Under the pieces are notes generated by a model. It saw nothing but the letters and a program-made list of their open reading frames with translations. It was not told the DNA's origin and did not search any database. Shown here in pieces: positions 6,782 through 27,511 of a stretch of 29,449 nucleotides of DNA. The stretch covers positions 1 to 29,449 of the forward strand of contig DATGGC010000052.1 of NCBI GenBank assembly GCA_035308745.1, written 5' to 3'. The position numbers and the translations under genes were made by a program. Within the stretch, counting starts at the first letter, position 1. The number at the start of each line of letters is the position of its first letter. Origin of the DNA: Candidatus Limnocylindrales bacterium. GTDB taxonomy: Bacteria; Chloroflexota; Limnocylindria; Limnocylindrales; CSP1-4.

Positions 6782-7879
6782 TCAGCGGCGAGCGCGCCTC
6801 GCCAGATTGACCCAGGCACCGGCCAGGCCAGTTGCTCCAGCGACGCTCAGGACCACGAGGTAGGTCAGTGATGCACTGCCCTCGGTGGGCGCTGCCATGT
6901 TCGTGGGTGGCGCGGTAGGTGCCGGCAACGCGACACGGAGCTTCGGGGTCGCGGTTGGTCCTGACAAGGCGGCAGGGGTTGGGGTCGGCGCAGCCGTTGG
7001 CGCCACGGTCTGCGTGGGCGTCGGCGTGGGCGTGGGCGTCGGCGTGGGCGTCGGCGTGGGCGTGGCCGTGGGCGTTGCGGTCGGGGTGGGCGTCGCAGTC
7101 GGTGTCGGCGTGGGTGTCGGCGTCGGCGTGGGGGTCGGCGTCGGCGTGGGGGGCGGCGTCGGCGTGGGTGTCGGCGTCGGAGCGGCGGCGCAATCCGCGC
7201 GCGTGATCGCGTTTGTATCCATCGTGACGGCGCCATCGAGGGCGAGCGCTCGGCCATCGATGTTCACGCCGGTCGTGGCGGTGATCGAAGTCAGGGCGAG
7301 GATGTTGCCCGCGAAGCTCGAGTTGGTGCCAAGCGTCGCCGAGCTCCCGATCTGCCAGAACACGTTGCACGACTGAGCCTCGTTGGTGAACAGGACACTG
7401 CTCGAGGAGGCCGTGGTCAGGGTCGAGCCGATCTGGAAGACCCAGATCGCATTCGGGTCACCGTGGGCGTCGAGCGTCAGGATTCCGGTCAGGCCGATCG
7501 AGCTGGGTGCCCTGTAGACCCCCGGGCCCAGGGTGAGGCCGCCGAGGTCCCCGGCAATGCCCGCGTCGGGCGCCTGACCGACCGCTTCGTTGTAGGCCGC
7601 CCTCAGGTCATTCTGGGCCTGGGCAGCGTTCGGATCAGCGGTCGCGATGGTTCCGTTCACCACACCGGGCGGGAATCCAGTGACCGCACTGCCCGGGCTG
7701 ACGCCGAGGTCGCCGGTGACGAACGTCGAGCCGGTATTTGTGGCAGTCGTCGCCGCGAGCACGGCGAAGGACGATGCCGTACCGAGGTTGATGGTCGTCG
7801 CAATCGCCTTGGCCGTCGCTGGCAGGACGATCGTCGTGAGGGCGACGGCCGCTACGGCGATCCGCTGGATCTTGAGCAT
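6782..7879 (-). CDS. DUF3494 ice-binding-like protein with signal peptide, Pro-Thr stalk and C-terminal membrane anchor
   Basis: [97 protein letters not shown] is the typical DUF3494 signature; then (PT)n, a TM helix and an RRARR tail. Confidence 0.93.
7008..7182 (-). repeat. Imperfect 6-bp-unit tandem repeat (GTCGGC/GTGGGC on +) encoding a Pro-Thr linker
   Basis: Directly visible; translates to [14 protein letters not shown]... in the DUF3494 CDS. Confidence 0.9.
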
Positions 7880-11702: not shown

Positions 11703-12542
11703 TCAGGCCGCGGGCGGCCCTGCCTCGATGCGCCTTCGGAGCGACTCGACGGTGGCGTCTTGCCAGTCGGCCTCGATCCACCACGTGGCCCCGGCCTCGA
11801 TCCATGGCCTGACGGTGGCCGCGGCGGCTTCGCGATCACTCGCCGACGAGGTGCCCTGGGCGATGATTTCGAACGGCCGGCCGTGCTCGCCGGCGGGTCG
11901 TTCTCGCGTCGCGTAGGCCGCGATCGCCTTGATGTGCTCTGGTCGAAGGTCGACTGGGCCGCCGGTGTCGTCGTGGGCCTGGGGAATGATCCCGTCCCAC
12001 CGAATGGCCCGGTGCATCGATCGCTCCCGGGGCCACGCCGCGACAACCCAGATGGGCACCCTGGGGCGCTGGATGGGTGTGGGCAGGAACGTCATCTCTG
12101 GGAACGAGAAATGACGCCCGGCGAAGCTGAACGGCCGGCCCGACCACAGGCCCGTCAGGATCTCGAGGGATTCATCGAGAAGCTCGGCTCGGGTCCGGAC
12201 GTCGGTCGGTTCGCCGACCGGACCGAAGCCCGCATCGTCGAGCACCCCAAGGCCCACCGGTAGGACCAATCGGCCGCTCGAGAGTCGGTCGAGGGTCATC
12301 GCCTCTCGGGCCAGCTTCCACGGGCGCCGCCGCGCCGGCGGGGTGATGATCGCGCCAAATCGGACCCGGCTGGTCCGCTCGGCCACCGCGGCCATCACGA
12401 CCCAGGGGTCATACAGCTCCATCGACCCGATCGCGATGGCGTCGAAGTAGAACACGCCATCCCAGCCCGCAGACTCGGCCGCGGCCGCCAATTCGGCAAC
12501 GGTTCGTGGATCGCCGACCGTGAGGATCACTCCGTAGTGCAT
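11703..12542 (-). CDS. LLM-class (luciferase-like) flavin/F420-dependent oxidoreductase
   Basis: AAESAGWDGVFYFD, DPWVVMAAVAERTSRVRFG, RRPWKLAREAMTLDRLSSGRLVLPVGLG, PIQRPRVPIWV. Confidence 0.92.
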   Translation of the reverse strand: MHYGVILTVGDPRTVAELAAAAESAGWDGVFYFDAIAIGSMELYDPWVVMAAVAERTSRVRFGAIITPPARRRPWKLAREAMTLDRLSSGRLVLPVGLGVLDDAGFGPVGEPTDVRTRAELLDESLEILTGLWSGRPFSFAGRHFSFPEMTFLPTPIQRPRVPIWVVAAWPRERSMHRAIRWDGIIPQAHDDTGGPVDLRPEHIKAIAAYATRERPAGEHGRPFEIIAQGTSSASDREAAAATVRPWIEAGATWWIEADWQDATVESLRRRIEAGPPAA

Positions 12543-13092: not shown

Positions 13093-14592
13093 GTGACCGT
13101 AGCCCAGGCATCCGCACGCTGGCGCATCAGGTTGAGCGTCCCCTGGCCGGTCCTCCTCGTCGCGGGCCTGATGGTCGCGCTCCTGCTCGCGGTGTCGAGC
13201 GCTTACGGCTTCCACGGCGACGAGATGTACTTCGTCGTCGCGGGCCAGCACCCTGCCTTCGGCTACGTCGACCAGCCGCCGCTGACGCCGCTGCTCTCGG
13301 CTGCCTCAGTCGCGATCCTGGGCGTCTCGCCGACCGCCGTCCGAGTCCTGCCCGCGCTCGAGATGGGCGTGATCTCGGTGCTGATCGCGCTCATCGCCCG
13401 GGACCTGGGCGGTTCGCGCCGAGCCCAGGTCCTTGCAGCGATCACGGCAGCGATCTCGGGCTATCTCGGGGCCGGCCATCTGGACACGACCACCGACCCT
13501 GACTTGCTGGCCTGGGCGCTCATCCTGTGGCTGCTGGTCGAGCTGCTCGCCGGTGGTGATCGACGGCTTTGGCTGGGTGTAGGGGTGGTCGCCGGGATCG
13601 GCCTCGAGAACAAGGACACGCTCCTGTTCCTGGGCGCGGGGTTGGCGGTCGGGCTTCTCGTCAGCAGGCGATGGGATGTCGTGCGCTCGCCGTGGGCCTG
13701 GGCGGCGGTCGGCATCGCCCTCCTCCTTTGGGCGCCGAACCTCGCCTGGGAGGCGCTGAATGGCTGGCCGCAATTGACGATGGCCCAGGCGATCTCCGGC
13801 TACGCCGGCGACAACCGCTCGCAGTTCATCCCCCTCCTGTGGCTGTTCACCGGCCCGCTCCTCTTCCCGGTCAGCGCCGCGGGTCTGGTTTGGGTGTTCC
13901 GAGCCAAGGACGCGGCGCCCTGGCGCTCGATTGGGATTGGAGCGCTGGTCGCACTTGCCCTGGTCTACGCGAGCGGCGGCAAGGCCTACTACGTGATCGG
14001 GAGCGTGCCGATCTTCATTGCCGCTGGCGCGACCGTCACGGACCGCTGGCTCGCCCGGGGGCATTTCCGCCTCAAGCTCGGAAGCTTCGCCGTTGCAGCC
14101 GCCCTGTCGGGCGCCCTCATCGCCCTGTTGACCCTGCCCGTGCTGCCGGTCGCGACGTTCGCGACGTCCTCGCTTCCGGCAACCGTGCCTGACACGGCCA
14201 ACCAGATCGGCTGGCCGCAGTTCGTGGCGACTGTAGAAGGCGTCGTCGCCGCACTGCCGGCGGACGAACAGGGCCGGGCGGTCATCTTGACCAACGACTA
14301 CAGCGAGGCCAGCCCGCTGATCCTGCTCGGCCATGACCTGCCGCCCGTCTACTCGGGCCACAACGGGTACTGGGCGTGGGGGCCACCGCCGGCCGATCGA
14401 ACGGTCGTGATCCACGTCGGCGACTGGCGGCCGGCCGACTACAGCCAGTTCTTCACGGGCTGCACGGTCGCCGCGACGATCGACAACGGCCTCGGCATCG
14501 TGAACGGCGAGCAAGGCGAAGCCGTGACCGTGTGCACGGGCCTCCGTGCGCCATGGACCTCGATGTGGCCCGCGCTGAGGACGATCTCCTAG
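13093..14592 (+). CDS. GT-C glycosyltransferase, GT39/ArnT (PMT_2)-like
   Basis: GFHGDEMYF..GYVDQPPL first-loop motif, about 11 TM helices, GGKAYY, and a C-terminal extracytoplasmic domain (NDYSEA..SGHNGYWAWGPP). Confidence 0.88.
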   Translation: MTVAQASARWRIRLSVPWPVLLVAGLMVALLLAVSSAYGFHGDEMYFVVAGQHPAFGYVDQPPLTPLLSAASVAILGVSPTAVRVLPALEMGVISVLIALIARDLGGSRRAQVLAAITAAISGYLGAGHLDTTTDPDLLAWALILWLLVELLAGGDRRLWLGVGVVAGIGLENKDTLLFLGAGLAVGLLVSRRWDVVRSPWAWAAVGIALLLWAPNLAWEALNGWPQLTMAQAISGYAGDNRSQFIPLLWLFTGPLLFPVSAAGLVWVFRAKDAAPWRSIGIGALVALALVYASGGKAYYVIGSVPIFIAAGATVTDRWLARGHFRLKLGSFAVAAALSGALIALLTLPVLPVATFATSSLPATVPDTANQIGWPQFVATVEGVVAALPADEQGRAVILTNDYSEASPLILLGHDLPPVYSGHNGYWAWGPPPADRTVVIHVGDWRPADYSQFFTGCTVAATIDNGLGIVNGEQGEAVTVCTGLRAPWTSMWPALRTIS

Positions 14593-14631
14593 GTCCCCGT
14601 CGGCATGGTGGCGGAGCCCCGGGGCGAACGA

Positions 14632-15624
14632 TCAGTAGCTGATCGGCTCGCGAGCGCAGGCGCCGGCGAGGCAGGGTAGCCCCAGAACGTCCTCGATCGT
14701 GCGCAGCAGACTCAGATGGTCGGCGTAGGCATTGGTTCTGAACCCGGCTGGCATCCCCGGCGCGATGATCAGGGTGGCGATGTGGCCGCCGTCATCGCCG
14801 AACGAGCCGGCATTGGTCGATCCTTCGTCGAAGGTGATGAACAGCGCCGAACCGGGGACAAACGCCGGGCTCGACGTGATGCCCGGGATGAAGGCCCGCA
14901 GGAACGCATCGCCCTGGGCGATCGTCCCGTTGTGCATGTCGTTGGTCAGGTTCGGCACGATCAGCTCGAACCGCGCGGCGGTCGGATCGAACAGGCGCAG
15001 GGGCTGGATATTCGCGCACTGGGCGGGATCACTCGAGATCGCGCTGAAGTTGATGGCGGGATTGTGGCGTCGGACGTACGTGCCCGGGCTCCCGGGTCCG
15101 TCCGCGCCGCCAGTCGCCTCGACGCCGGTGTAACAGCCGGACGGATCGTCCTGGGCGAACACCCGCCACGGTTGGGCGTTGTCGTTGAGCTGGCTGAAGA
15201 TGGTGGGACCAGCCAGGTTGTAGGGCGAGTCGGTGGTCACACCGAGCGTTGACCCGGCCACGAGGGCGACGTAGTTCAGGAGCGAATGGTGGCCGGTGGC
15301 GAAGAAGTTGGTTGCCAATCCGTACGTCGCGGCCAACCCATTGAGATACGGCGCATCGGGGCTGCCAAGGACCGTCGAGTCCTCCTTGTTCTCCATGATG
15401 ATCAGCCACGCGCGATGAACGACACCGGAGGGCAGCGGGGCGGCGCTGGCGGGCAGTGGCGATGCGGCCACCGGCAAGGATGGTCCCACCGCGATACCCG
15501 ACGGTGATCCGCGGTCGGCGGGCGCGAACGGGGGCAAGGACGCGACCAGGAGGCCCAGGATCGCCGCCAGGATGACGACACCCACGAACGGCCCCAGGCG
15601 GCGGTAGGCGGGCGGCCTATCCAT
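14632..15624 (-). CDS. Membrane-anchored extracytoplasmic phosphoesterase (acid phosphatase/phospholipase C family, SapM/AcpA-like)
   Basis: N-terminal TM and PS-rich linker; IIMEN, HSLLNYVAL (Ser nucleophile region), RRHNPA, NDMH, ITFDE, HLSLLRTIED. Confidence 0.87.
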   Translation of the reverse strand: MDRPPAYRRLGPFVGVVILAAILGLLVASLPPFAPADRGSPSGIAVGPSLPVAASPLPASAAPLPSGVVHRAWLIIMENKEDSTVLGSPDAPYLNGLAATYGLATNFFATGHHSLLNYVALVAGSTLGVTTDSPYNLAGPTIFSQLNDNAQPWRVFAQDDPSGCYTGVEATGGADGPGSPGTYVRRHNPAINFSAISSDPAQCANIQPLRLFDPTAARFELIVPNLTNDMHNGTIAQGDAFLRAFIPGITSSPAFVPGSALFITFDEGSTNAGSFGDDGGHIATLIIAPGMPAGFRTNAYADHLSLLRTIEDVLGLPCLAGACAREPISY

Positions 15625-15666
15625 GGCAGTAGCGCAGATTGGCCTCTTCCTTGGGGATTGGTCGCG

Positions 15667-15698
15667 AGGCTACCGGCGGAACCTGAGCGCCACATGAA
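15667..15698 (-). promoter_or_regulatory. OmpR-family direct-repeat box plus -10 for the phosphoesterase gene
   Basis: Minus strand: TTCATGT-ggcg-CTCAGGT-tccgccgg-TAGCCT. Confidence 0.72.
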
Positions 15699-15711
15699 CG
15701 GACCTGCCCGG

Positions 15712-15743
15712 CTCAGGTAACCCTCAGGTTCAGCGCCCAGTCT
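15712..15743 (+). promoter_or_regulatory. OmpR-family direct-repeat box plus -10 for the GT87-Kelch-YVTN operon
   Basis: CTCAGGT-aacc-CTCAGGT-tcagcgcc-CAGTCT. Confidence 0.75.
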
Positions 15744-15751
15744 CGGCGTGG

Positions 15752-17164
15752 ATGGCAGCAAGCGGATCTACGTGGGGGCCGCCCCGCACGGCCGCGATAC
15801 GAGGCCTGACCTGGCTCCTGCCTGTCGTCGGCCTGGTCGTCGCGAGCGTAGGGGCGACAGGCCGTCCATTGGGCATGCCGGCGGCGCTGGCGCCTGTCGC
15901 AATTGCCGGGCCGGTCGTCCTTGCCGGAGCAGCCTGGCTGCTCGGCCTCAGGCTGGGACACGCAAGGTGGCTGCCTCTCGCCGTGCTTGGCATTGCCGTG
16001 CTCGGCATCATCGCGGCCCTGATCCTGCCAGGGCTCCTGGCGGACGTCACGCGGACGCGCGCACGACTCGAGCTGGATAGCGCGGCGGCCGGGGTCGTCG
16101 CCGTGGGCATCGTGATCGGCCACGTCCGCGGGAGGCGGCCCAGCTCGCTCGATCTTCTCGTCGGGATCGCCCTCGTTGCGATGGTGATCACGGACCTCGC
16201 GATCGTCCATTCGGTCTATCAACGGGACCTCAACCTGTACCTCGATGCCGGGCACGACTTCCTCGCTGGTCGGCCGGTCTACGCCCAGGTTCCACTGACG
16301 GTCGCGCCGGCCGACCTCACCCAACTGCCCTTCGTCTATCCGCCGGTCACGCTGCCGCTGTTCGCCGCCCTGGCTGCGTTGCCGCAGCCCCTGGTCTCCG
16401 TTTTCTGGCTCGTCCTGCAACTGCTCGCGGCCTTCGCGGCGATCCGGCTCGTCGGGGTGCCCTCGCGCTGGGCGGGCGTGCTGCTCCTGTGGCCGCCCTT
16501 TGTGCAGGGTGTCTGGGTCGGCAATGTGGCGATCTGGATGGTTCTGATCTTTGCCCTCGTTCCATTTCGTCGATTCGTCGTGGGGCTGCCCGCGATGTTC
16601 AAGTTCCAGGCGGGCGTCGCCGGCCTGTGGCTGATCAGGGAGCGGGATTGGAACGCGCTCGGTGGGGCCATCGGGCTCGTGATTGCACTTGTGCTGATCA
16701 CCCTTCCGCTCGTCGGGATCGGGGCCTGGTCCAACTGGTATCACGGGTTGCTCGCGTTTCAACGGACGACCGTCAATATTCCGGGGATCCGCGGGCTGGC
16801 ACTCTCGCGCTGGATCGGTGAGCTTCTCGCCCTGACGCTCGCGGTCGCGATCGCCGGGATCAGCCTGTGGGCCGGACGCCGGGCCAGCCTCGCCAACCTT
16901 GGATTGGCTGGCGTCGCGGTGTCACCAACGCTGTACCTCCATGGCCTGACCCTCGCGCTGCCAGGATTCCTGCAGCTTCGGGCTGCGGTGTTCTGGTTGC
17001 TCCTCATCGGCACGTTCAGCACGGGTCTGAAGGGCTGGCTCTGGCTGATCCTCCTGGTGGCGGCGCTCGCGCCGGTCATTCCGCAATTGCGGCACCAGCC
17101 GTCCGAAGCCGAATCGGATTGGCAGCCACTCGGCCGGTCGGACGGCCCGTGGCCGGCTTCGTGA
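15752..17164 (+). CDS. GT-C glycosyltransferase family 87 (DUF2029)-like
   Basis: RDLNLYLDAGHDFLAGRPVY..PFVYPP loop motif, GNV..W, K-F-Q motif, multiple TM helices, and an extra N-terminal 4-TM region. Confidence 0.85.
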   Translation: MAASGSTWGPPRTAAIRGLTWLLPVVGLVVASVGATGRPLGMPAALAPVAIAGPVVLAGAAWLLGLRLGHARWLPLAVLGIAVLGIIAALILPGLLADVTRTRARLELDSAAAGVVAVGIVIGHVRGRRPSSLDLLVGIALVAMVITDLAIVHSVYQRDLNLYLDAGHDFLAGRPVYAQVPLTVAPADLTQLPFVYPPVTLPLFAALAALPQPLVSVFWLVLQLLAAFAAIRLVGVPSRWAGVLLLWPPFVQGVWVGNVAIWMVLIFALVPFRRFVVGLPAMFKFQAGVAGLWLIRERDWNALGGAIGLVIALVLITLPLVGIGAWSNWYHGLLAFQRTTVNIPGIRGLALSRWIGELLALTLAVAIAGISLWAGRRASLANLGLAGVAVSPTLYLHGLTLALPGFLQLRAAVFWLLLIGTFSTGLKGWLWLILLVAALAPVIPQLRHQPSEAESDWQPLGRSDGPWPAS

Positions 17165-18207
17165 GAGCCTCATCTGGACGACGCAGCGGGTGGCTCGGCG
17201 TCGTCCTGTCGGCAGCCTTCGTGCTCGCGTCGTGCGCCAGCCAGCCGATCTCGCCGGCGCCCTCGATCGCCGGCCCGCTCGCCTCGTCGGCTCGTCCAAG
17301 TGCCGAGCCGGCTGTAGCCGAGAGCCCGTCTGCGAGCCTTGGCACGCCGCCGGTGCCCGCCGCGCGAGGTCTGCGCATCGAGCGATCGGCCATCCGGCTG
17401 CCGGCCGGCCGCAGCCGATCGGTAGCCCTGCTCCTCGGATCGGAGATCCTCGTATGCGGCGGGCTCACGGCGGCCGGCACGACCGATTCGATCCTCCGGA
17501 TCAACCTGCCAGCCGGCGCGATCGAGGCCCACGGCACGTTGCCGGCACCTGTCCACGATGCCGGCGGCGCCGTCCTCAACGGGGTCGGGTTCATCTTCGG
17601 CGGTGGAAGATTCGGACCGGGCGCAACCGTCCAGCGCGTCGGAGCCAACGGGAATGCGGCCTCCAGCGGGCGCCTGCCGGCCGATCGGGCCGACCTCGTC
17701 GCCGTCGCCATTCCCGGCAGCCTGGCACTGGTCGGTGGAGGAACCACCACCTTCTACGACCGGCGCGTGCTGGCGACCAGTGACGGCCTGCACTTCACCC
17801 AGATCGCGACGTTGCTCGTCGGGGTCCGCTATCCGGCCGTGACGTTCGACGGCGGCCGCATCTACGTGATCGGTGGCAGCACGGCGTCCGGCGACACGAC
17901 CGCCATCCAGGCGATCGATCCCGCGACCGGCCGGGTCCAATTGATCGGACGCCTGCCTCGGGCCCGGTCCCATGCTGCCGCGTTCGTCGTCGGCGGAGCC
18001 CTGCTGATCGCCGGTGGTCGGGTCGCTGGCCAAGCCCAGGACAGCGTCCTCCGGCTCGATCCTGCGACTGGGACCGTCCGCCAGGTGGGCCGCCTGCCGT
18101 ACCCGGTCTCGGACCTGGCCGTGGCCGTGGTCGGGACGACGGCCTACCTGATGGGCGGCGAGTCGGCGGCGCCGCTCGCGTCGGTCGTCACGGTCTCCAT
18201 GACCTGA
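17161..18207 (+). CDS. Kelch-repeat beta-propeller lipoprotein
   Basis: GTG overlaps the GT87 stop (GTGA); MRASSGRRSGWLGVVLSAAFVLAS-C lipobox; six repeats with GG (LVCGG, FIFGGG, ALVGGG, IYVIGG, LIAGG, AYLMGG). Confidence 0.85.
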   Translation: MRASSGRRSGWLGVVLSAAFVLASCASQPISPAPSIAGPLASSARPSAEPAVAESPSASLGTPPVPAARGLRIERSAIRLPAGRSRSVALLLGSEILVCGGLTAAGTTDSILRINLPAGAIEAHGTLPAPVHDAGGAVLNGVGFIFGGGRFGPGATVQRVGANGNAASSGRLPADRADLVAVAIPGSLALVGGGTTTFYDRRVLATSDGLHFTQIATLLVGVRYPAVTFDGGRIYVIGGSTASGDTTAIQAIDPATGRVQLIGRLPRARSHAAAFVVGGALLIAGGRVAGQAQDSVLRLDPATGTVRQVGRLPYPVSDLAVAVVGTTAYLMGGESAAPLASVVTVSMT

Positions 18208-18217
18208 TGGATCGCCG

Positions 18218-19525
18218 GTGACAGACGCCCCGCGGCCGCGCCAGAATCAGCGCTCACAGGCTCATCGCCGACGGGCTCAACGGATTCCGCCGCGCTGGCT
18301 GGCCGCGGTCGGCCTCATTGGCCTGGCGGCGCTGATCACGGTCGGGTCGATGCTGGGCGGCCGATCCGGCCTGCCGGCCAGCTCAGGCAACATTGCGGAG
18401 GCGATCTCTCCGGCCGGCTCGGCCCCGACGCTTGCACCGATGACTCCGCCAAGCCTGGGGCCAATCAGCAGTGTCGGACCGACGGCAAGTCCGTCGCTCG
18501 CCTCGAGCGGACCCACGGGCAGCTCGTCGAATATCTATGCGGCTGCCGGGGTGGGCATGTTCTCCCCGACGGTTCGAGCCTTTCCACCACGGGTGTACGT
18601 GCCCGATGAGCTGACCGGGACGGTGATCGTCATCGATCCGCTCACGTTCAAGATCCTGTTCCGCTACCCGGTCGGGGCCTCGCCTGAGCATGTCACGCCC
18701 GACTGGGACCTCCAGCGCCTGTACGTGGAGGCCGCCTTCGGCAACCGGCTGACCGTCATCGATCCAGGGACCGGTCGGGTCATCGGCTACCACTCGGTCC
18801 CAGGCCCGTACAACCTGTACTTCACGCCCAACGGCAAGTTCGCGATCGTGGTCCGCGATGCCGCGCAGGCCTACGGCGGCCAGCACCAGCTCTACTTCTA
18901 CGACCGACGGACCTGGCACCTGATCAAGGCGGTTCAGATCCCCTGGGCGGGCGCCGACCACCTCGACTTTTCGGCCGACGGGAGCTACTTCCTGCTCAGC
19001 ACGGAGTACGCGGGCTGGGTGGCCAAGGTGAGCGTCGCGAAGATGCAGGTCGTTGGCGCCCTGTACGTGGGCGGGCACCCGATCGATGTCCGGCTGGCGC
19101 CCGACGGCAAGACGTTCTTCGTGGCCGACTATGTGAGTGGCGGAGTCTCGGTCGTCGACCCGGTAGCCATGCGTGTCGTCGCCTTCATCAGGACCGGACG
19201 GGGCGCCCACGGCCTGTCGCTCAGCCGGGACGACAGGTCGCTCTACGTGACCAATCGGCTGGCCGGCTCACTGTCCGTGATCGACCTTCGGACCCGGCGG
19301 GTGGTGCACACCTGGTCGATCGGCGGAACGCCCGACATGATCGCCGTCTCGCCCGACGGCAGCCAGCTGTGGATCTCGAACCGCTACAGCGGCAGCGTCA
19401 CGGTCATGAACGCCCACACCGGGCACGTGATCATCGTCATCCACGTGGGCGGCCACCCCCACGGCCTGGCCTACTTCCCCGAGCCCGGCCGCTACAGCCT
19501 GGGCCACAACGGCATCTATCGCTGA
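18218..19525 (+). CDS. Membrane-anchored YVTN/YncE-type beta-propeller protein
   Basis: TM helix and S/P-rich linker; repeats VYVPD..VIVIDP, YFTPNGK, FSADGSY, LAPDGKTFFV, LSRDDRSLYVTNR, VSPDGSQLW; C-terminus PEPGRYSLGHNGIYR. Confidence 0.88.
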   Translation: MTDAPRPRQNQRSQAHRRRAQRIPPRWLAAVGLIGLAALITVGSMLGGRSGLPASSGNIAEAISPAGSAPTLAPMTPPSLGPISSVGPTASPSLASSGPTGSSSNIYAAAGVGMFSPTVRAFPPRVYVPDELTGTVIVIDPLTFKILFRYPVGASPEHVTPDWDLQRLYVEAAFGNRLTVIDPGTGRVIGYHSVPGPYNLYFTPNGKFAIVVRDAAQAYGGQHQLYFYDRRTWHLIKAVQIPWAGADHLDFSADGSYFLLSTEYAGWVAKVSVAKMQVVGALYVGGHPIDVRLAPDGKTFFVADYVSGGVSVVDPVAMRVVAFIRTGRGAHGLSLSRDDRSLYVTNRLAGSLSVIDLRTRRVVHTWSIGGTPDMIAVSPDGSQLWISNRYSGSVTVMNAHTGHVIIVIHVGGHPHGLAYFPEPGRYSLGHNGIYR

Positions 19526-19549
19526 GGCAGAACGGTGGACTGGCCGGGG

Positions 19550-19581
19550 CTCAGGTTGGCTTCATGTCCGCTGCCCACGCT
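19550..19581 (+). promoter_or_regulatory. OmpR-family direct-repeat box plus -10 upstream of the sORF-RR-HK-GT operon (probable autoregulation)
   Basis: CTCAGGT-tggc-TTCATGT-ccgctgcc-CACGCT. Confidence 0.72.
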
Positions 19582-19665
19582 GGCCATGGATGGCTCCTGG
19601 TTTCGGAGACCGCATCCCGCGGGAGCCATCCGCTTGACCACCATGCGGCGAGCTCGGAGGGCAGC

Positions 19666-19785
19666 GTGTCAGCGATCGTCTTCCTGGGGATCAACCTCGC
19701 AGGCAAGCAATTGGTCGTCGTCGTCGTGGTGATGGCCGTCGTCATCATTGCCGGCTTCTGGCTTCTGCTGCGCCGTCGCCGATAG
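19666..19785 (+). CDS. 39-aa single-pass membrane peptide
   Basis: GGAGGG SD at 19656-19661, then GTG 19666. MSAIVFLGINLAGKQLVVVVVVMAVVIIAGFWLLLRRRR has a TM helix and a poly-Arg tail. Confidence 0.65.
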   Translation: MSAIVFLGINLAGKQLVVVVVVMAVVIIAGFWLLLRRRR

Positions 19786-19872
19786 CGGATTGACGTCGAT
19801 GATGCACCTGACCGGTCGGACAGGGTGGTCATGTCGGCCTGCCCCGGGCGCCTCTCCTGACGCGGATTCACG

Positions 19873-20622
19873 ATGGGATTAGGATCGCGTGCGGCGGATC
19901 CGGTCGCTGAAGGAGCCGGGCCGGGGAGGACCCAGCTGCGCATCTTGGTCGTCGAGGACGAGTCTGCGATCGCCGATGGCCTCAAGGTTGTCTTGAGCTC
20001 AGATGGGCATGCGGTCGACGTGGTTGGCGACGGACTCGACGCGCTGCGCTGGGCGGAGACCTACCCGTATGACCTGGTCATCCTCGATGTCGTGCTGCCG
20101 AGCCTGGACGGCTTCGAGGTGTGCCGGCGGCTTCGGGCTGCCCGATTTGTTGCACCGATCCTGATGCTCACGGCCCGGGACAGCGTCGAGGACCGGGTGA
20201 ACGGGCTCGACCAGGGAGCCGACGACTACCTCGCCAAGCCTTTCGCCGTTGCCGAGCTGCGGGCCCGGCTCCGGGCACTGCGCCGACGAGTCGGGACCGA
20301 GCGGGCAGGGTCGCTGACGGTCGGGGACCTGACCCTCGATCCGCCGACCATGCGGGTGACCCGGGCAGGCCGGGAGATCCGGCTCACGACCCGAGAGTTC
20401 GCGTTGCTCGAGCTGCTGGCCCGACACCCCGGCCAGCTCTTCACCCAGGAGCGCCTGCTGGATGCCCTCTGGAACGCCGACTTCGTGGCCGAGTCGAACG
20501 TCGTGGAGGCCTTTATCCGGAGCCTTCGGCGCAAGGTGGACGACGGTCGGCGCAACGGGCTCATCGAGACCGTCCGCGGCGCTGGATACCGCTTGCGTGT
20601 CGTTCCCGAGGCAGCGGCCTGA
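19873..20622 (+). CDS. OmpR/PhoB-family response regulator (MprA/CssR-like)
   Basis: ILVVEDE, VILDVVLP, ILMLTARDSVEDRVNGLDQGADDYLAKPF; winged helix LTTREFALLELL..SNVVEAFIRSLRRKV..IETVRGAGY. Confidence 0.96.
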   Translation: MGLGSRAADPVAEGAGPGRTQLRILVVEDESAIADGLKVVLSSDGHAVDVVGDGLDALRWAETYPYDLVILDVVLPSLDGFEVCRRLRAARFVAPILMLTARDSVEDRVNGLDQGADDYLAKPFAVAELRARLRALRRRVGTERAGSLTVGDLTLDPPTMRVTRAGREIRLTTREFALLELLARHPGQLFTQERLLDALWNADFVAESNVVEAFIRSLRRKVDDGRRNGLIETVRGAGYRLRVVPEAAA

Positions 20623-21584
20623 TGTTCCAGCGGGCTCGTCGTCGTCTGACGGTCCTCTACGTCGTCCTCTTCGCCCTGGTATTCGCGGTCTTCAGCGTCG
20701 TCTTCTATGTCGCCTTTCGGACCGTCCTGGGTCCGGCATTCGACATCGCCCCCGACCTCTCGTCCAGCCAGGCCGCCGGGCTTGCCTACCAGGTGGCACT
20801 CGAGCGAGTTGGGATCGCGCTGATCGTCGCCAACCTGCTGACGATTGGGCTGGTCGCCGTTGCCGCGTGGGTCCTCGCCAACCGAACCCTGCGGCCGATC
20901 CGTGATGCGCACGCCCGCCAGCGGCGGTTCGTGGCCGACGCCTCGCACGAGATGCGGACCCCGCTTGCGGCGATCCGGGCGACGGCTGAAAGCAGTCTCG
21001 AGCCGGCCGTCCGGGTCGACGACCTCAGGGCCGACATGGTCCGGATCATCGAAGCGGCCGAGCGCCTGACGAAGATCACCAACGACCTGCTCATCCTGGC
21101 CAGCGCCGACGACCGCTTGATCGAGCCGGCAAAGGAGCCGTTTGACCTGTCCGTCGCGGTGGCTGAGGCGATCAGCACATTCCGGGTCGCCCATCCGGGC
21201 ACCGACCAGATCCGGGTGAACCTGGTGCCCGACCTGCGCGTGCGGGGCGAGCCCGAAGGATGCGATCGAATCGTGACCAACCTGCTCGACAACGCTGTTC
21301 GCTACGGTGGTCCGGCAGCGGCGGTCCAGGTCACGATGTCGGCGACGGATCACGAGGGCGTCGTCGAGGTGGCCGATCACGGGCCGGGGATCGATTCACA
21401 GGACCTCGATCGCATCTTCGAACCCTTCTATCGGGTCCGCGCCGATACGGGCGGTCCCTCCGGCAACGGCCTGGGCCTCGCGATCGCGCGCAGCCTGGCG
21501 GAGCGTTCCGGAGGCCACCTGAGCGTGACGAGCCAGGCCGGATCCGGTGCGACGTTCCGCCTGGCCCTGCCGCGCGTCAGCTAA
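20622..21584 (+). CDS. Membrane sensor histidine kinase (HisKA + HATPase, short extracytoplasmic loop)
   Basis: ATG overlaps the RR stop (TGATG); 2 TM helices; FVADASHEMRTPL, NLLDNAVRYG, DHGPGI, IFEPFYRV, GLGLAIA. Confidence 0.95.
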   Translation: MFQRARRRLTVLYVVLFALVFAVFSVVFYVAFRTVLGPAFDIAPDLSSSQAAGLAYQVALERVGIALIVANLLTIGLVAVAAWVLANRTLRPIRDAHARQRRFVADASHEMRTPLAAIRATAESSLEPAVRVDDLRADMVRIIEAAERLTKITNDLLILASADDRLIEPAKEPFDLSVAVAEAISTFRVAHPGTDQIRVNLVPDLRVRGEPEGCDRIVTNLLDNAVRYGGPAAAVQVTMSATDHEGVVEVADHGPGIDSQDLDRIFEPFYRVRADTGGPSGNGLGLAIARSLAERSGGHLSVTSQAGSGATFRLALPRVS

Positions 21585-21590
21585 CGAAGG

Positions 21591-23075
21591 ATGAGGCGGA
21601 GCCGATGGGCCGCATCGGCAGCCGGTCTCTTGCCCGGGGTCAGTGCGGCCGTCGCGATCGGGTTGCTCCTCGTCGTGTTCGTGCGGGTCGATCCGCCAAG
21701 CGGCGTCACGGCCAGCGCCAGCCCATTCACCGATGAGGCCTGGCACGTCCTCAATGCCCGCAACCTCGTGCTCTTCGGCCAGTTCTCGACCGATGACTAC
21801 AACCTCCACTTGCTCACGGCGCCGTTCAGCGTCGCGGTCGCCGCGGTCTTCAGCGTGCTCGGGGTTGGAATGGCCCAGGCTCGGCTGGTCGCCATCCTGG
21901 CGACGGGCCTGACGGTCGGACTGCTGGCGATCGGCCTGCGCTCGATCGTCGGCCGCTGGCCGGCGCTCGTTGCCGGACTTGCCTTCGGCACGTCGGCACT
22001 GGTCCTCTACTACGGCCGCCTGGCATTCCTCGAGCCGCTCGAAGGGCTGTTCCTGGTGACCGCGCTGGTCCTGGTGGTTCGCGACGGTGAGCATCACCGA
22101 TTCGTGCTCGGCTTGGTTGCCGGGATCGCGCTGGCCCTGGCGATCGGGACGAAGGCCAGCGCGGCCATCCCCGCCGCGGGGATCGTTGCCGGACTGGCGG
22201 TGGCACATGTCAGGGAGCGGCGAGATTGGCGCCTGGTCACCGGGTGCATCAGCGGCCTGGGCCTGTCCGCCGCCGGCTGGCTGGTCGCCGTGGGCTTGCC
22301 CAACATGCACGCCCTGCCCGCCGTGCTCTCGACGCTGCCGCCCGAACCACTGCCCGGCTCGGTTGATGAGCTCCTGAAGCGCGTTGCCGGGTACGTCGTC
22401 CACAGCGACGGGGCATGGCCCATGGCCGGGCCGTTGATCGTCGGGACGCTGATCGCTGGTGCAATCGGAGTCGCGGCGCGGTCGCGCCTGAGTGCGCCGC
22501 AGCGAACGCTGCTGCTGGTGGCGACCGGCTGGGCCGTCGCCGGCTTCGCGATCCTGTTCCTCGTCCCCTACCGGCCGAACCGCTACGTCGTCCCGCTGCT
22601 CCCGGCGCTGGCCGGTATCGTCGGAGTCGGCCTCGCCCTACTGGCTGGCTTCGAGGTCCGCCGGCGCGTTCAGCAGCTCAGCCTTGTCGCCGTCGGGGTG
22701 CTCGCCGTGGCTGGCCTCACGGCACCAGGGCTGGTGCTGGACGCTCATTGGATGGCAACGACCCCGAGCACGCTGCCGGGCATCCAGGCGCGGGTTGCCG
22801 GATTGCTGCCTCCGGGAGCTACGGTTCAGGGTGCGTATGCGCCTCTCCTGGCGATGACGGCGCGGGTCACCGCCATCGTGGTCTGGCCCGGCGGCAAGGT
22901 GAACGCGGGCGACCTCTATGCCAGCCGTGGGGTTCGGTGGGTCGTGGGGACACCCGGGCGAGCCGCCGATGTTCCGAGCTGGGTCAGCCTCCACCCGGGC
23001 GCCTGGGCCGTCCGGCGAACGGTCGACTGCGTGCCCTGGGGTGGCGACCAGGTCTGCCTCTGGGCCGTGCCCTGA
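21591..23075 (+). CDS. GT-C glycosyltransferase, ArnT/GT39/GT83-like
   Basis: FTDEAWH acidic first-loop motif; about 12 TM helices; YYGRLAFLEPL; GTKASA; PNRYVVPLLP. Confidence 0.8.
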   Translation: MRRSRWAASAAGLLPGVSAAVAIGLLLVVFVRVDPPSGVTASASPFTDEAWHVLNARNLVLFGQFSTDDYNLHLLTAPFSVAVAAVFSVLGVGMAQARLVAILATGLTVGLLAIGLRSIVGRWPALVAGLAFGTSALVLYYGRLAFLEPLEGLFLVTALVLVVRDGEHHRFVLGLVAGIALALAIGTKASAAIPAAGIVAGLAVAHVRERRDWRLVTGCISGLGLSAAGWLVAVGLPNMHALPAVLSTLPPEPLPGSVDELLKRVAGYVVHSDGAWPMAGPLIVGTLIAGAIGVAARSRLSAPQRTLLLVATGWAVAGFAILFLVPYRPNRYVVPLLPALAGIVGVGLALLAGFEVRRRVQQLSLVAVGVLAVAGLTAPGLVLDAHWMATTPSTLPGIQARVAGLLPPGATVQGAYAPLLAMTARVTAIVVWPGGKVNAGDLYASRGVRWVVGTPGRAADVPSWVSLHPGAWAVRRTVDCVPWGGDQVCLWAVP

Positions 23076-23088
23076 GCCGGTCGCCCGC

Positions 23089-23871
23089 TCATCGGGCCCG
23101 GTCCGGTTCGGTGCGACCGATGCTTTGGGACACGACCAGGGCCACGATCAGGAGGGTGAGCGCCAAGCTCACCGATCCCGTTCCCAGTCCCAGGCCGCTC
23201 AGCGTCCTGGGTCGTCCGATCCAGTCGGCGAACGAGGCGCCGAAGGGCCGGGTCAGGATGTAGGCCGACCAGAATGCGACGACGGCATTCAAGCCCGCCA
23301 GCCGATACCCGAGGGCCGGGACGATGAACAGGCCTGCGAACAGGATCCCCGAAGCCAGGTAGCCCAGCCGGAGGGTGCTGGCGGTCATGTCACCCGTCGC
23401 GGTTCCAAGGGCGAACGTGGCCAGGACCGTGGCCCAGTAGAAGAGCTCGCGTCGGCGGCTGTCGATGGCATGGATCGAGAGGGTGCCTTCGCTGGACCGC
23501 CAGACACCAAAGACGACGGCGAGCACGAGGGCGAAGAACACGGTCGAGACGAGATACGGGACGCCCAGCTCGATGTGCAGGACATCGGCGGCCATCGTCC
23601 CGAAGATCGCGACCATCGCGACCACCAGCCAGTAGATCCCAGGGATGAACCGGTTGGCTCGGAGCTGCACGAGCAGCGCAAGGCCGAGGGCGACTGCCGT
23701 GACCGGAACGACCACCAGCGGGTTGAATGTTCGGACCAGGTAGTCGGAGGTCACCTCGCCCATCGCGGTCGTGAGGATCTTGATGACCCAGAAGCTGAGC
23801 GTGATTTCGGGGACTTTGCGCCTGGTCAGATCGGTTGGCCTGCGTCGGGCCAGGTCCATCGTCCGGGTCAA
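23089..23871 (-). CDS. DUF347/COG4705 membrane protein (internal repeat)
   Basis: KVPEITLSFWVIKILTTAMGEVTSDYL; YWLVVAMVAIFGTMAAD; RRRELFYWATVLATFALGTATGD; FWSAYILTRPFGASFAD. Start is TTG 23871 or ATG 23859. Confidence 0.9.
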   Translation of the reverse strand: MTRTMDLARRRPTDLTRRKVPEITLSFWVIKILTTAMGEVTSDYLVRTFNPLVVVPVTAVALGLALLVQLRANRFIPGIYWLVVAMVAIFGTMAADVLHIELGVPYLVSTVFFALVLAVVFGVWRSSEGTLSIHAIDSRRRELFYWATVLATFALGTATGDMTASTLRLGYLASGILFAGLFIVPALGYRLAGLNAVVAFWSAYILTRPFGASFADWIGRPRTLSGLGLGTGSVSLALTLLIVALVVSQSIGRTEPDRAR

Positions 23872-23940: not shown

Positions 23941-23972
23941 ACCGTAGCGCCTGAACCTGAGAGCCCGCTGAG
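23941..23972 (-). promoter_or_regulatory. OmpR-family direct-repeat box plus -10 for the DUF347 gene
   Basis: Minus strand: CTCAGCG-ggct-CTCAGGT-tcaggcgc-TACGGT. Confidence 0.72.
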
Positions 23973-24008: not shown

Positions 24009-24467
24009 CTAGGCGCCCCGATCCTCATCGTTCAGGGTCGGCAACACCGATACCGCGCGTTCGAGCGCTGCCAGCTCGCCATCGGAAAGCTCGAGGAGCT
24101 CCGGTGGCGGAGCGTAGATGCCCGCGATGAGCGCCCGCTTGGTGGCGACGCCATGCGGCGTCAGCACAACCAGCTTGACCCGCCGGTCGGTGGCGTGGGC
24201 CCGGCGTTCGGCAAGGCCCTTGGCCTCGAGTCGATCGACCGTCCAGGTCGCAGTCGACGCATCGCAGCGCCATTCGGCCGCGAGCGAACGCATCGTTCGC
24301 CCTCCGCCCTCGAGTCCCGGAGTCTGGAGCGCCCGACTGTCGTTGGGCGTCAGCCCATGGCGGGCGAGCAGCTCGATCCGCAACGGCGAGGTGGCAACGA
24401 TGAAGTCGAAGATCCGCCGCCAGGTCGAGGCTGCGAGTTTGGTCGTCCGGGCTGACGGTTCGGGCAT
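24009..24467 (-). CDS. MarR-family transcriptional regulator
   Basis: HGLTPNDSRAL..TMRSLAAEWRCDASTATWTVDRLEAKGLAERRAHATDRRVKLVVLT winged-helix signature. Confidence 0.93.
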   Translation of the reverse strand: MPEPSARTTKLAASTWRRIFDFIVATSPLRIELLARHGLTPNDSRALQTPGLEGGGRTMRSLAAEWRCDASTATWTVDRLEAKGLAERRAHATDRRVKLVVLTPHGVATKRALIAGIYAPPPELLELSDGELAALERAVSVLPTLNDEDRGA

Positions 24468-24483: not shown

Positions 24484-24528
24484 TTGACCACAGGTTGTTT
24501 GATCGGTACGATAGTTGTAGTAATCAAA
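24484..24528 (+). promoter_or_regulatory. Sigma70 promoter with overlapping inverted repeat (candidate MarR operator)
   Basis: TTGACC (24484-89)-N17-TACGAT (24507-12); AT-rich TTTGAT (24498-503)...ATCAAA (24523-28) inverted repeat. Confidence 0.65.
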
Positions 24529-24588
24529 GGATGGTGGACAGATGGATCCGGACTCGGGCCACGGCTTCGCGCTCTTCCTGGATCGCCG

Positions 24589-25470
24589 ATGAAGATCGGC
24601 CTCCACGTCCCGGCCACGTCCTGGTCCGGTGGGCCGGCCAGCCTGGGTACGACACTCGCGACCATCTGTGCGGCAGCCGAGGCGGCCGGGTTCGCCTCGA
24701 TCGATGTCGCCGACCACCTCTGGCAGCACCCGATCATGGGTGGCCCGACCGAGAGCCAGCTCGAGGCGTACACGACGCTCGGGTTCATCGCGGCGCATAC
24801 CCAGCGCGTGCGGTTGTTGGCGCTGGCGACTGCCGTCAGCTTCCGGCCGGCGGGCTTGCTGGCCAAGATGGTCACGACACTCGACGTGCTCTCAGGCGGC
24901 CGGGCGATGCTCGGGATCGGAGCCGGCGACTACCCGGACGAGGCCGCTGGTCTGGGCTTGCCCTACCCGCCGCTCGGTGAACGGTTCGATCTGCTCGAGG
25001 AGACGGTCCAGGCGTGCCTCGCCATGTGGGCGGGCAGCCAGGGCGATGAGCGGCCATTCCAGGGCAAGCACATCGCGCTCGGGCGCCCGCTCAACTCGCC
25101 CCAGAGCCTGACCCGTCCGCATCCGCCGATCCTGATCGCCGGCAGTGGCGAGCGGCGGACGCTGCCCCTCGTCGCTCGATACGCCGACGCCTGCAACCTG
25201 CGACCAGGGCCGGAGATCCCGCGCCAGCTCGATCTCCTGGGTCGCCTGTGTGACGAGGAGAAGCGCGACTACGACGCGATCGAGAAGACCGTGCCGTTCG
25301 GCTTCGACGTTGGCGAGGATGGATCGAAGTCTGGAGCCGTCATCGACCAGCTCCGCTGGCTGGCCGGCCTGGGGATCCAGACCGTGTTCGGCTGGGTCGT
25401 GGGCGTTGACCGGATCACCCCACTCGAAGTGATGGGCCGCGAGGTCATTCCGGCAGTGATGGATCTCTGA
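24589..25470 (+). CDS. LLM-class F420-dependent oxidoreductase (Rv1855c-like)
   Basis: MKIGLHV..AAEAAGFASIDVADHLWQHP..EAYTTLGFIAAHTQRVRL..GLLAKMVTTLDVLSGGRAMLGIGAG; PHPPILIAGSGERRTLPLVARYADACN. Confidence 0.92.
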   Translation: MKIGLHVPATSWSGGPASLGTTLATICAAAEAAGFASIDVADHLWQHPIMGGPTESQLEAYTTLGFIAAHTQRVRLLALATAVSFRPAGLLAKMVTTLDVLSGGRAMLGIGAGDYPDEAAGLGLPYPPLGERFDLLEETVQACLAMWAGSQGDERPFQGKHIALGRPLNSPQSLTRPHPPILIAGSGERRTLPLVARYADACNLRPGPEIPRQLDLLGRLCDEEKRDYDAIEKTVPFGFDVGEDGSKSGAVIDQLRWLAGLGIQTVFGWVVGVDRITPLEVMGREVIPAVMDL

Positions 25471-26106: not shown

Positions 26107-27057
26107 TTAGCGGAGAGCCGCCAGCACAGGCTCCACGACGTCGTCCGCGAGCGCCTGGGGAGACAGGAACCCGACCGGCGCCAGGACGAAGTGACGCGCG
26201 CCGGCCTCGATCAGCCCGTGGATCAGATCCTGGGTCGCGGCAGGGTCGAAGAACCGCGGCAGGACGTCGGCGTTTGGCGAGGCGCCGCCGGCCGCCGTCG
26301 TGGCAACGAGGATCTGGACCGAACGGGTGATCTCGCCGGGATCCCGGCCGATCGCAGCGCAGTGGTCATCGAGGACTGCGCTCTTGCGGCGGAACTCGGC
26401 GATGTCGCCGCGGGTGGGGCAGTTCCAGATGTCGGCCTGCTCGGCGACAACCCGGAGGGCCAGCCGTTCTCCGCCGGCGCCGATCGTGATCGGCGGGCCG
26501 GGCCGCTGGACGGGCTTGGGCTCGCAGATCGCGCCCTTCAGCTGGTAGTAGCGGCCCTCGAAGTCGAATGGCGTGTCCTCGGTCCATAGGCGCTTGATGA
26601 TCGTGCACGCCTCGCCCAGCGCACCGACGGCCTCGCCAGGGGCGACGACCTCGATGCCGTAGGCGTCGAGCTCGCGGTGGACCAGGGCCAACCCGGCAGG
26701 ATCGGCGACGGCGCTGCCGCCGGCACCAATCCCGAACTCGAGCCGGCCGCCGGCAATGATGTCGACGGTCGCCGCCATCTTGGCCAGGACCGCGGGCTGG
26801 CGGATCCGGTTGTTGGTCACGATGATTCCCAGCCGGAGGCGGGTCGTCTGTGCCGCCAGTGCCGCCAGGAGGGTCCAGGCCTCGAGGGCTGGGCCGGTGA
26901 CGTCGCCCCGCAACGGAACGAGGTGGTCCCATAGCCAGGCGTGCTCGAAGACCGCGACCTGGTCCGCTTCCCGCCAGATTCGCTGGATCTCGGCGTACGT
27001 CGTGTTTGCCTGGCTGGTCTTGATTCCAAAGCTGACCCGAGGCCTAGTGACAGCCAT
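26107..27057 (-). CDS. LLM-class F420-dependent oxidoreductase
   Basis: AGGAGGT SD before ATG 27057; FEHAWLWDHL, LEAWTLLAALAAQTTRLRLG, RQPAVLAKMAATVDIIAGGRLEFGIGAG, PKPVQRPGPPITIG. Confidence 0.92.
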   Translation of the reverse strand: MAVTRPRVSFGIKTSQANTTYAEIQRIWREADQVAVFEHAWLWDHLVPLRGDVTGPALEAWTLLAALAAQTTRLRLGIIVTNNRIRQPAVLAKMAATVDIIAGGRLEFGIGAGGSAVADPAGLALVHRELDAYGIEVVAPGEAVGALGEACTIIKRLWTEDTPFDFEGRYYQLKGAICEPKPVQRPGPPITIGAGGERLALRVVAEQADIWNCPTRGDIAEFRRKSAVLDDHCAAIGRDPGEITRSVQILVATTAAGGASPNADVLPRFFDPAATQDLIHGLIEAGARHFVLAPVGFLSPQALADDVVEPVLAALR

Positions 27058-27127
27058 GTGACCTCCTGCGACCATGATATTGGCGACGCGCTCGGGCGAC
27101 GAGCTGGACCAGGGAAGGAGATCGACA

Positions 27128-27511
27128 ATGCTCTCGGACAGTCGGACGCACACAACCCTGCCGAGTGCCGACCTGGCTCGAGCCCGGGCGTTCTATGAAG
27201 GCGTCCTGGGGCTGGTTCCAGAGTTCGCCGAGCCGGGCGGCGTCATGTATGCCACGGCTGGCGGCACCCACTTCCTCGTCTTTCCGTCGAGCGGCCGGGC
27301 ATCCGGTGCCCACACCCAGATCGGCTTTGCCGTTGCCGACATTGGAACGGCGGTCGCCGAACTCAAGGCACTGGGCATCGCCTTCGAGACGTACGACTTC
27401 GATGGCTTCGACCCGGCGAGCTCGATCGCCACGAATGGCGACATCCGGGCGGCCTGGTTCAAGGACCCGGACGGGAATCTCCTGAGCGTCGTCCAGGGCG
27501 CTTCGGTGTAG
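27128..27511 (+). CDS. VOC/glyoxalase-family protein
   Basis: AAGGAG SD before ATG 27128; TLPSADLARARAFYEGVLGL; AAWFKDPDGNLLSV. Confidence 0.92.
   Translation: MLSDSRTHTTLPSADLARARAFYEGVLGLVPEFAEPGGVMYATAGGTHFLVFPSSGRASGAHTQIGFAVADIGTAVAELKALGIAFETYDFDGFDPASSIATNGDIRAAWFKDPDGNLLSVVQGASV

Follow-up and report, generated by a model that had tools for sequence, protein, structure and literature searches.

A box-defined two-component regulon of envelope genes, with DUF347 and an outward-facing phosphoesterase, predicted in a soil Limnocylindrales genome

Genes of the locus

The window analysed here, 29,449 nt of DNA from a Candidatus Limnocylindrales bacterium, is the entire contig C52 of a metagenome-assembled genome (MAG) of 2.8 Mb (2.82 Mb) in 419 contigs, which is about 90% complete and has a GC content of 0.71 (69% for the window DNA). 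From 13093 to 23871 it carries a cluster in which a two-component system (TCS), consisting of a response regulator (RR) and a histidine kinase (HK), lies among genes for a phosphoesterase, membrane glycosyltransferases of the GT-C type, two beta-propellers, a micropeptide, and a DUF347 membrane protein. We consider it rather probable that this is a local envelope-stress TCS regulon defined by a shared promoter box, whose core of TCS, DUF347, and outward-facing phosphatase resembles the mmf cassette of Cupriavidus metallidurans. In a search of sequencing runs, a soil metagenome run contains 95% of the words of the window, and the weaker matches are mine and soil metagenomes. Genes were called by codon usage and scanned against Pfam, which together support every gene that a preliminary description of this interval had named.

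13093-14592 (+): PMT_2 GT-C glycosyltransferase, 499 aa; Pfam 84.1 bits against a cut-off of 26.1
14632-15624 (-): PF04185 phosphoesterase, 330 aa; Pfam 65.5 bits against a cut-off of 23, over positions 104-356 only of the hidden Markov model (HMM)
15752-17164 (+): GT87-family GT-C glycosyltransferase, 470 aa, polytopic; Pfam 46.5 bits against a cut-off of 25
17161-18207 (+): Kelch beta-propeller lipoprotein with LASC lipobox; Pfam and sequence
18218-19525 (+): YncE/YVTN seven-bladed beta-propeller with transmembrane (TM) anchor; Pfam 101 bits
19666-19785 (+): micropeptide, 39 aa, single TM helix, basic tail; from sequence
19873-20622 (+), start possibly 19945: OmpR/PhoB-family RR; Pfam
20622-21584 (+): HK, 320 aa, HisKA/HATPase; Pfam
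21591-23075 (+): PMT_2-type GT-C glycosyltransferase, 494 aa, end of the TCS operon; Pfam 30.9 bits against a cut-off of 26.1
23089-23859 (-): DUF347 (PF03988) membrane protein, four repeats, eight helices; Pfam 156 bits

The GTG start of the Kelch gene overlaps the GT87 stop (GTGA overlap), and the two genes are predicted to be translationally coupled. The kinase ATG overlaps the RR stop by one base, and the second PMT_2 gene starts 6 nt past the kinase stop. By hydropathy, the phosphoesterase has an N-in TM anchor (helix 10-28) followed by a Pro/Ala/Ser linker, and YncE has a single N-in anchor with a Pro/Ser/Ala linker; therefore all of the non-regulatory products would act in or outside the membrane. 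We infer that the products of the cluster are membrane-embedded or tethered to the outer face, so that its output would be remodelling of the cell surface.

Both PMT_2 proteins have a DE motif after the first TM helix, and the GT-C enzymes are polytopic with HMM scores above gathering. The narrower labels GT39-like and ArnT-like, given to them previously, are looser than these data: the Pmt equivalog model scores 24.9 bits against a cut-off of 800, and none of the three GT-C enzymes matched a solved structure in a sequence search at E up to 1 for the PDB. The phosphoesterase had been described as an extracytoplasmic enzyme of SapM/AcpA type. The PF04185 family and the outside location hold, but the subtype is not established, as a sequence search against solved structures including AcpA gave no match.

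A shared box at four promoters

An 18-nt direct repeat, YTCAKGT-N4-YTCAKGT, with heptamers at 11-bp spacing, is found at four intergenic sites. Two heptamers one helical turn apart are the usual layout for a regulator of the OmpR/PhoB family.

Box 1, 15681-15698 (-): TTCATGT-N4-CTCAGGT, 56 nt upstream of the phosphoesterase start
Box 2, 15712-15729 (+): CTCAGGT-N4-CTCAGGT, 22 nt before the GT87 ATG
Box 3, 19550-19567 (+): CTCAGGT-N4-TTCATGT, heading the micropeptide-RR-HK-GT-C operon
Box 4, 23955-23972 (-): CTCAGCG-N4-CTCAGGT, 95 nt upstream of the DUF347 ATG

Every box faces a transcription unit, with gene starts 22-98 nt away. The degenerate pattern occurs at three sites in the window, where shuffled sequences lead us to expect 0.13. 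Genome-wide (2.82 Mb), a regular expression for the box has five matches, four of them in the window; when at least 12 of 14 positions must match, there are ten sites, four again in the window, against a background of 0.07-0.18 box-like sites per 20 kb. At the level of sequence, co-regulation by one box is well founded, and this bears out the preliminary description, which had placed every gene except the one at 13093 under the box; that gene has none. Box 3 implies that the micropeptide-RR-HK-GT-C operon is probably autoregulated. Box 2 lies only 22 nt from the GT87 ATG, and a leaderless or near-leaderless transcript is therefore suggested.

Alignment and a repeat search (repeat family D7) reveal that the GT87 promoter (15710-15756) duplicates the TCS promoter (19548-19594) over 47 nt at 70% identity. 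The copy ends within the 5' arm of a hairpin in the TCS leader, and the GT87 ATG sits in that remnant. In the related genome G006 (G000 is the genome of the window, other G numbers are related genomes, and L numbers are extracted loci or contigs), the phosphoesterase gene faces the TCS operon over two back-to-back boxes with a 13-nt gap, one of which is a degenerate counterpart of box 1. Boxes 1 and 2 in the window keep the 13-nt gap, but box 2 heads the GT87 operon instead. These sequences are most simply read as an insertion of GT87-Kelch-YncE that separated the TCS operon from the divergent promoter and duplicated that promoter in doing so.

The leader hairpin itself (19588-19631, +) lies between box 3 and the micropeptide gene, with a stem of 10-12 bp and a predicted energy of -36.6 kcal/mol, at a z-score of only -1.5. 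Both of its arms are conserved in G006 (L021 15880-15925, -), and it could serve in attenuation or as a site of processing. An Rfam scan of the cluster and the hairpin found no family. Elsewhere in the genome, on contig C191 (L179, 5300-5330), three CTCAGGC heptamers at 11-bp spacing stand 54-65 nt upstream of a GNAT/FemAB-like gene, and this gene may belong to the regulon as well, unless the match arose by chance. The name MprA-like box was considered for the repeat and dropped: the MprA motif of Corynebacterium glutamicum, TKTTAAGAAM (PMC12113857), is unlike YTCAKGT-N4-YTCAKGT.

Three luciferase-like monooxygenase genes (11703-12542, 24484-25470, and 26107-27153) and a MarR gene (24009-24467) flank the regulon. 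The MarR gene is co-directional with DUF347, and box 4 falls in the gap between them. Farther away, at 6782-7879 (-), is a gene for a PF11999 ice-binding-like protein (223 bits).

Regulator, kinase, and micropeptide

The kinase has two TM helices (about 14-32 and 63-81) joined by a loop of about 30 aa that is devoid of His, Cys, or Met ligands. HisKA and HATPase are the only domains found in it, with no HAMP or PAS, and its predicted architecture is that of an intramembrane-sensing kinase. The best NCBIfam models for the RR are RppA (233 bits, cut-off 250) and a heavy-metal RR (223 bits, cut-off 279), both below cut-off. In a regulator tree, the RR of the window groups with those of G006 and G011 with 99% support; a wider, weakly supported group, at 87%, holds the 13 OmpR-type regulators adjacent to DUF347, one that is not adjacent, and 3 of 13 paralogues from the genome of the window. 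Homologues of the micropeptide occur in G006 (L021 15735-15854, -) and on L135 (6585-6707), each beside a box. A complex prediction for HK residues 1-125 with DUF347 gave a score of 0.00, which weighs neither way on binding.

The genome also holds a paralogous TCS on contig C109 (L178; 829 and 2977), with an RR 49% identical to that of the window and a kinase of 455 aa. Related boxes, CTCAG-N6-CTCAG, precede its own operon and a ferric-reductase/FMN-binding/ApbE operon. Cross-talk between the two systems is possible.

The TCS and its box in related genomes

Of 40 related genomes, 7 have an orthologue of the kinase (E up to 1e-60, 51-84% identity), and the neighbourhoods of these orthologues differ. 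These loci and the related contigs, which include operons of the ATP-binding cassette (ABC) type, are arranged as follows.

G006: phosphoesterase (75% identical) facing micropeptide-RR-HK-PMT_2 (66%, in the same place); box with 14 of 14 positions upstream of the operon
G011: HK-RR facing SRPBCC-DUF347 (71%), box 22 nt before; cupredoxin-Kelch-YncE adjoining
G010: RR-HK, then a weak box and MurT-GatD
G021 (another genus): BacA-RR-HK-box-hypothetical-ABC-ABC-FtsX
G005:C62: box-RR-HK-box, then an ABC operon like that of G021
L135: box, micropeptide, box, Kelch, a 139-aa gene, YncE, DUF347, and PF04185, convergent with HK and RR; no GT-C
L134: box 83 nt before Kelch-YncE
L152: HK-box-ABC operon-box-GT4-Tad-Kelch-YncE
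L174: RR-HK-ABC operon, then a YncE-like gene; no box found ahead of the ABC operon

On L135, where a further box precedes the RR gene, the genes for DUF347, PF04185, Kelch, YncE, and the TCS all fall within 6 kb, and the phosphoesterase is a 58% homologue of that in the window. Three loci (G021, G005:C62, and L152) have the box in the same position, directly past the kinase stop and before the ABC-FtsX operon. A phosphoesterase linked to the TCS is present in G000, G006, and L135, as is the micropeptide; DUF347 is so linked in G000, G011, and L135, and Kelch-YncE in G000, G011, L135, and L152, with a YncE-like gene alone in L174. The conserved Kelch-YncE pair is more widespread (G011, L134, L135, L138, L146, L148, L149, L151, and L152), and YncE homologues 77-80% identical follow Kelch on other contigs. 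Where Kelch homologues are assigned to named groups, these are Candidatus Limnocylindrales and Dormibacterota, which makes a Limnocylindria-type Chloroflexota the probable host and speaks against an actinobacterial origin. The phosphoesterase also has homologues (46-65% identity) at 16 further places, with no other cluster genes nearby. Neither an ABC transporter nor an FtsX permease is in the window, and none was found in the roughly 90% of the genome covered.

Like the genes, boxes, and operon couplings, the conservation of the TCS and its box in relatives is shown by sequence. The TCS and box are stable, and a limited set of envelope genes supplies the cargo time after time. Orthologous promoters of other genomes keep the box, which so gains independent support beyond the statistics derived from the window. 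In G010 (C103:2664-2807, L039), a DUF347 gene (71% identical) has immediately upstream of it a 48-aa fragment that corresponds to the C-terminal end of the phosphoesterase, and this looks like a decayed phosphoesterase-DUF347 pair.

The glycosyltransferases behave differently from one another. PMT_2 is linked to the TCS in G000 and G006 only. GT87 is linked to it in this genome only; its relatives in congeners are 36-48% paralogues, and none of those examined stands beside the TCS. In seven congeners, full-length matches to the PMT_2 protein encoded at 13093 are 74-86% identical, and two copies that are incomplete or interrupted reach 66-79%. These lie at differing distances from the TCS. Because the gene has no box, is present throughout the genus, and occurs in genomes where no TCS orthologue was found, it is probably a genus core gene that is merely a neighbour of the regulon and not part of it. 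The GT-C genes are lineage-specific recruits and not defining members of the regulon, and the single module with three GT-C enzymes that the preliminary description envisaged is, as a fixed pathway, not supported.

DUF347 across phyla

The genome of the window has a single DUF347 match. We examined 80 further DUF347 loci (52-66% identity), each with flanks of up to 10 kb, from Chloroflexota, Actinomycetota, Firmicutes, Cyanobacteria, Patescibacteria, Proteobacteria, and others. In tblastn searches, GT87, PMT_2, Kelch, and YncE were beside DUF347 in none of the 80 loci from other lineages, and PF04185 was found once. It had been expected that these families would accompany DUF347 elsewhere; that expectation is borne out for DUF347, PF04185, Kelch, YncE, and the TCS on L135 and pairwise with the TCS in G006 and G011, but not outside the lineage. 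Clustering of 1,329 neighbour proteins identified an OmpR regulator plus kinase as the sole specific recurrent partner, present at 19 of the 80 loci and usually within 1.5 kb. The remaining recurrent clusters are generic (ABC ATPase, MFS, MMPL, and SDR). PAP2, BacA, or PF04185 accompanies 7 of the 19 TCS-bearing loci.

Three Leifsonia-type loci: PAP2-RR-HK facing DUF347
Solirubrobacterales MAG: RR-HK-BacA-DUF347
Actinoplanes: PF04185 beside HK, RR, and DUF347
Two more loci: PAP2 with TCS and DUF347
Bradyrhizobium plasmid (not counted in the seven): HK-PAP2-PilZ-PepSY-hypothetical-DUF347

The link between phosphatase and DUF347 is real and recurrent. On the Enterobacter hormaechei plasmid pEh60-7 (L143 6001-6645), an unannotated DUF347 frame lies directly downstream of mcr-10.1 (colistin resistance), another DUF347 beside an envelope-modifying enzyme.

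The AlphaFold model of DUF347 has eight helices at a pLDDT of 92.7, and each of the four two-helix repeats ends in an invariant Asp. A Foldseek fold search with the model gave a best E of 0.16 and no convincing solved relative. The best VIA-align Z was 7.3 (Z 6-7 over about 200 residues), to pore domains of four-repeat cation channels (NALCN, Cav1.2), values that are within helical-bundle noise. The modelled resemblance to four-repeat channel pores is a weak lead.

What the regulon may sense and do

In the mechanism we propose, the kinase would sense a disturbance in or at the membrane, because it has only two membrane helices and a short loop, possibly aided by the co-transcribed 39-aa peptide. 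It would phosphorylate the OmpR-family regulator, which would then bind the tandem heptamers 11 bp apart over the -35 region of four promoters. The units activated would be the TCS operon ending in PMT_2, the PF04185 phosphoesterase, the GT87-Kelch-YncE operon, and DUF347. Binding of the boxes by this particular regulator, activation of transcription on binding, and the substrates of the enzymes are what we infer. We tentatively place metal-cation or oxidant stress at the head of the candidate signals. A disturbed polyprenyl-phosphate carrier cycle is possible but rather doubtful, and something else is doubtful to the same degree.

The closest described counterpart is mmfABC1DC2RS ('multiple metal response') on Tn6048 of C. 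metallidurans CH34, which encodes a PepSY protein, a PAP2 undecaprenyl-pyrophosphate phosphatase, two DUF347 proteins, a secreted protein, and a TCS (PMC12029693). It is strongly induced by Pb and Zn, with no function assigned (PMC12029693). Frankia has three UppP-DUF347 operons that are lead-induced (PMC4531530). Both cases favor a metal-stress module of the mmf/pbr type, in which DUF347 would move a cation, phosphate released by the phosphatase would immobilise metal at the surface, and the propellers and GT-C enzymes would be surface proteins or modifiers that lower metal binding, by a logic analogous to PmrAB inducing ArnT. We regard this as a possible but tentative account. It would explain why three interchangeable phosphatase families appear, as phosphate release outside the cell is the sole property common to them, and the invariant acidic residue that ends each DUF347 repeat agrees with it. 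Its genomic surroundings are also suggestive: ZIP transporter genes near DUF347 in L095 and L107, cupredoxin or SoxE genes beside or near Kelch or Kelch-YncE in G011, L138, and L141, and mine metagenomes among the weaker matches to the window DNA. ApbE and ferric-reductase genes near Kelch homologues would fit metal or oxidant stress, and the boxes of the C109 paralogue before its ferric-reductase operon point the same way. For these regulators and kinases, models of heavy-metal families take first or second place, but with scores below cut-off. In addition, the loop of the kinase offers no metal ligands, the cluster has no recognised metal exporter, metallochaperone, or MerR/ArsR-type regulator, and mmf showed no clear metal phenotype in Cupriavidus gilardii comparisons (PMC12029693). 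The ABC-FtsX, MurT/GatD, and BacA contexts suit cell-wall stress better.

Those contexts speak instead for an integrated surface-glycosylation route, the reading of the preliminary description, in which the GT-C enzymes transfer sugars from polyprenyl-phosphate donors on the outside of the membrane. The lipid carrier would be recycled or translocated by the phosphoesterase together with DUF347, which would join DedA and DUF368 as another family of carrier translocases. Three phosphatase families recur beside DUF347 and a TCS, and two of them, BacA and PAP2, are undecaprenyl-pyrophosphate phosphatases. Bce-like ABC-FtsX operons, BacA, and MurT/GatD are found at sister TCS loci, either under this same box or adjacent to it, and the neighbours of Kelch-YncE include genes for an LCP ligase, a GT4, and a polyprenyl-phosphate sugar-phosphate transferase (PF00953). 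A carrier-cycle signal would likewise suit the GT-C genes themselves and the ABC-FtsX operon behind a kinase of the intramembrane-sensing type. Plasmids bearing mmfA and mmfB raise the minimum inhibitory concentration of bacitracin (PMC4914505). We nevertheless hold the glycosylation route to be unlikely. GT-C genes are missing near DUF347 in other lineages, as described above, and L135, the most complete sister locus, has none; the cluster lacks a sugar-donor synthase gene, and the DUF347 model is unlike solved carrier flippases. We know of no activity of PF04185 enzymes on polyprenyl pyrophosphate. If a diatom DUF347 gene is metal-induced, as stated in PMC4531530 of a study cited there, an undecaprenyl-specific role becomes improbable. 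More speculative still, and quite unlikely in our view, is a general form of this idea: that DUF347 with an outward phosphatase (PAP2, BacA, or PF04185) is a TCS-controlled device for polyprenyl (pyro)phosphate, with DUF347 as a new family of carrier-lipid translocases, wired here to GT-C enzymes for stress-induced glycosylation.

It could also be that a variable stretch of the chromosome has brought together genes with no relation to one another, and that the motif is a relic of local duplication rather than a working operator. The GT87 promoter demonstrably duplicates that of the TCS, and the content of the cluster differs in every genome examined. Boxes 1 and 4, however, share only the heptamers with the duplicated promoter, the position and spacing of the box are kept in other genera despite diverged flanks, and one set of cargo families returns to the TCS in varying arrangements. 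We judge this explanation very improbable.

Several points weigh against the box-defined envelope-stress regulon that we prefer. The motif was derived from this window, which makes the box statistics within the genome partly circular, and several boxes in relatives are degenerate, at 10-11 of 14 positions. Most of the evidence was gathered within a single genus and on related metagenome contigs, and these samples are not independent of one another. Heavy-metal/RppA-type families are those nearest to the TCS, yet it scores under their cut-offs, and the clade uniting its RR with DUF347-linked regulators has an SH-aLRT support of only 87% and includes the three paralogues from its own genome. Pfam scans of the window found none of three mmf hallmarks: PAP2, PepSY, and a second DUF347. 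Finally, the sequencing-run search for the window matched DNA runs only and zero RNA runs.

DUF347 is very widespread and highly conserved, with 52-66% identity between phyla and no assigned function. The locus and its relatives offer a defined putative operator, a small regulon, and the displacement of one phosphatase family by another (PAP2, BacA, and PF04185) beside DUF347 and a TCS. For the mmf cassette, two testable alternatives thereby emerge: that it immobilises metal, or that it handles a lipid carrier. In a little-studied lineage from soil, the locus further illustrates how an envelope-stress regulon may grow, with its promoter duplicated in front of surface enzymes that have been newly recruited.

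Comparison with known systems

The Bce/Psd modules of Firmicutes share with the locus a kinase that lacks a sensor domain and whose two helices are joined by a short loop. The likeness is greater in the sister loci G021, G005:C62, L152, and L174, which place an ABC-ABC-FtsX operon right after the kinase, with BacA upstream in G021. The window, in contrast, has no ABC transporter, and the sister loci have a permease of about 905 aa with two ATPase genes.

PmrAB of Enterobacteria (BasRS; ArnT, EptA, PmrG, PmrR) is similar by analogy, as a TCS that is responsive to metal cations and induces a GT-C enzyme, a phosphatase, and a small membrane peptide, which jointly alter the cell surface. Orthology, however, extends to the family level only (PmrA model 184 bits, cut-off 330), and the GT-C enzymes of the window are not ArnT. 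The host is probably a bacterium of the Chloroflexota type, in which a lipid A target is not known.

The closest likeness is to mmf (also pMOL98 and pHB44), in the OmpR regulator and kinase, DUF347, an outward-acting phosphatase, and small secreted or membrane proteins. As there, the TCS is close to DUF347, which lies 1.5 kb from the kinase in the window and under the same box. Sets similar to mmf are also seen in Leifsonia, Solirubrobacterales, and the Bradyrhizobium plasmid. The differences are several. No scanned gene of the window matches PAP2 (PF01569), and PF04185 fills the phosphatase role; there is no PepSY gene, and one DUF347 gene rather than two. The kinase is without a periplasmic sensor domain, and the locus is chromosomal, not transposon-borne. 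The window adds the 39-aa membrane peptide, the Kelch-YncE pair, and two GT-C glycosyltransferases. The preliminary description knew of no described pathway with this composition, but the mmfABC1DC2RS cassette shares the combination of TCS, DUF347, and phosphatase. That core has therefore already been described, and the locus is a variant of it.

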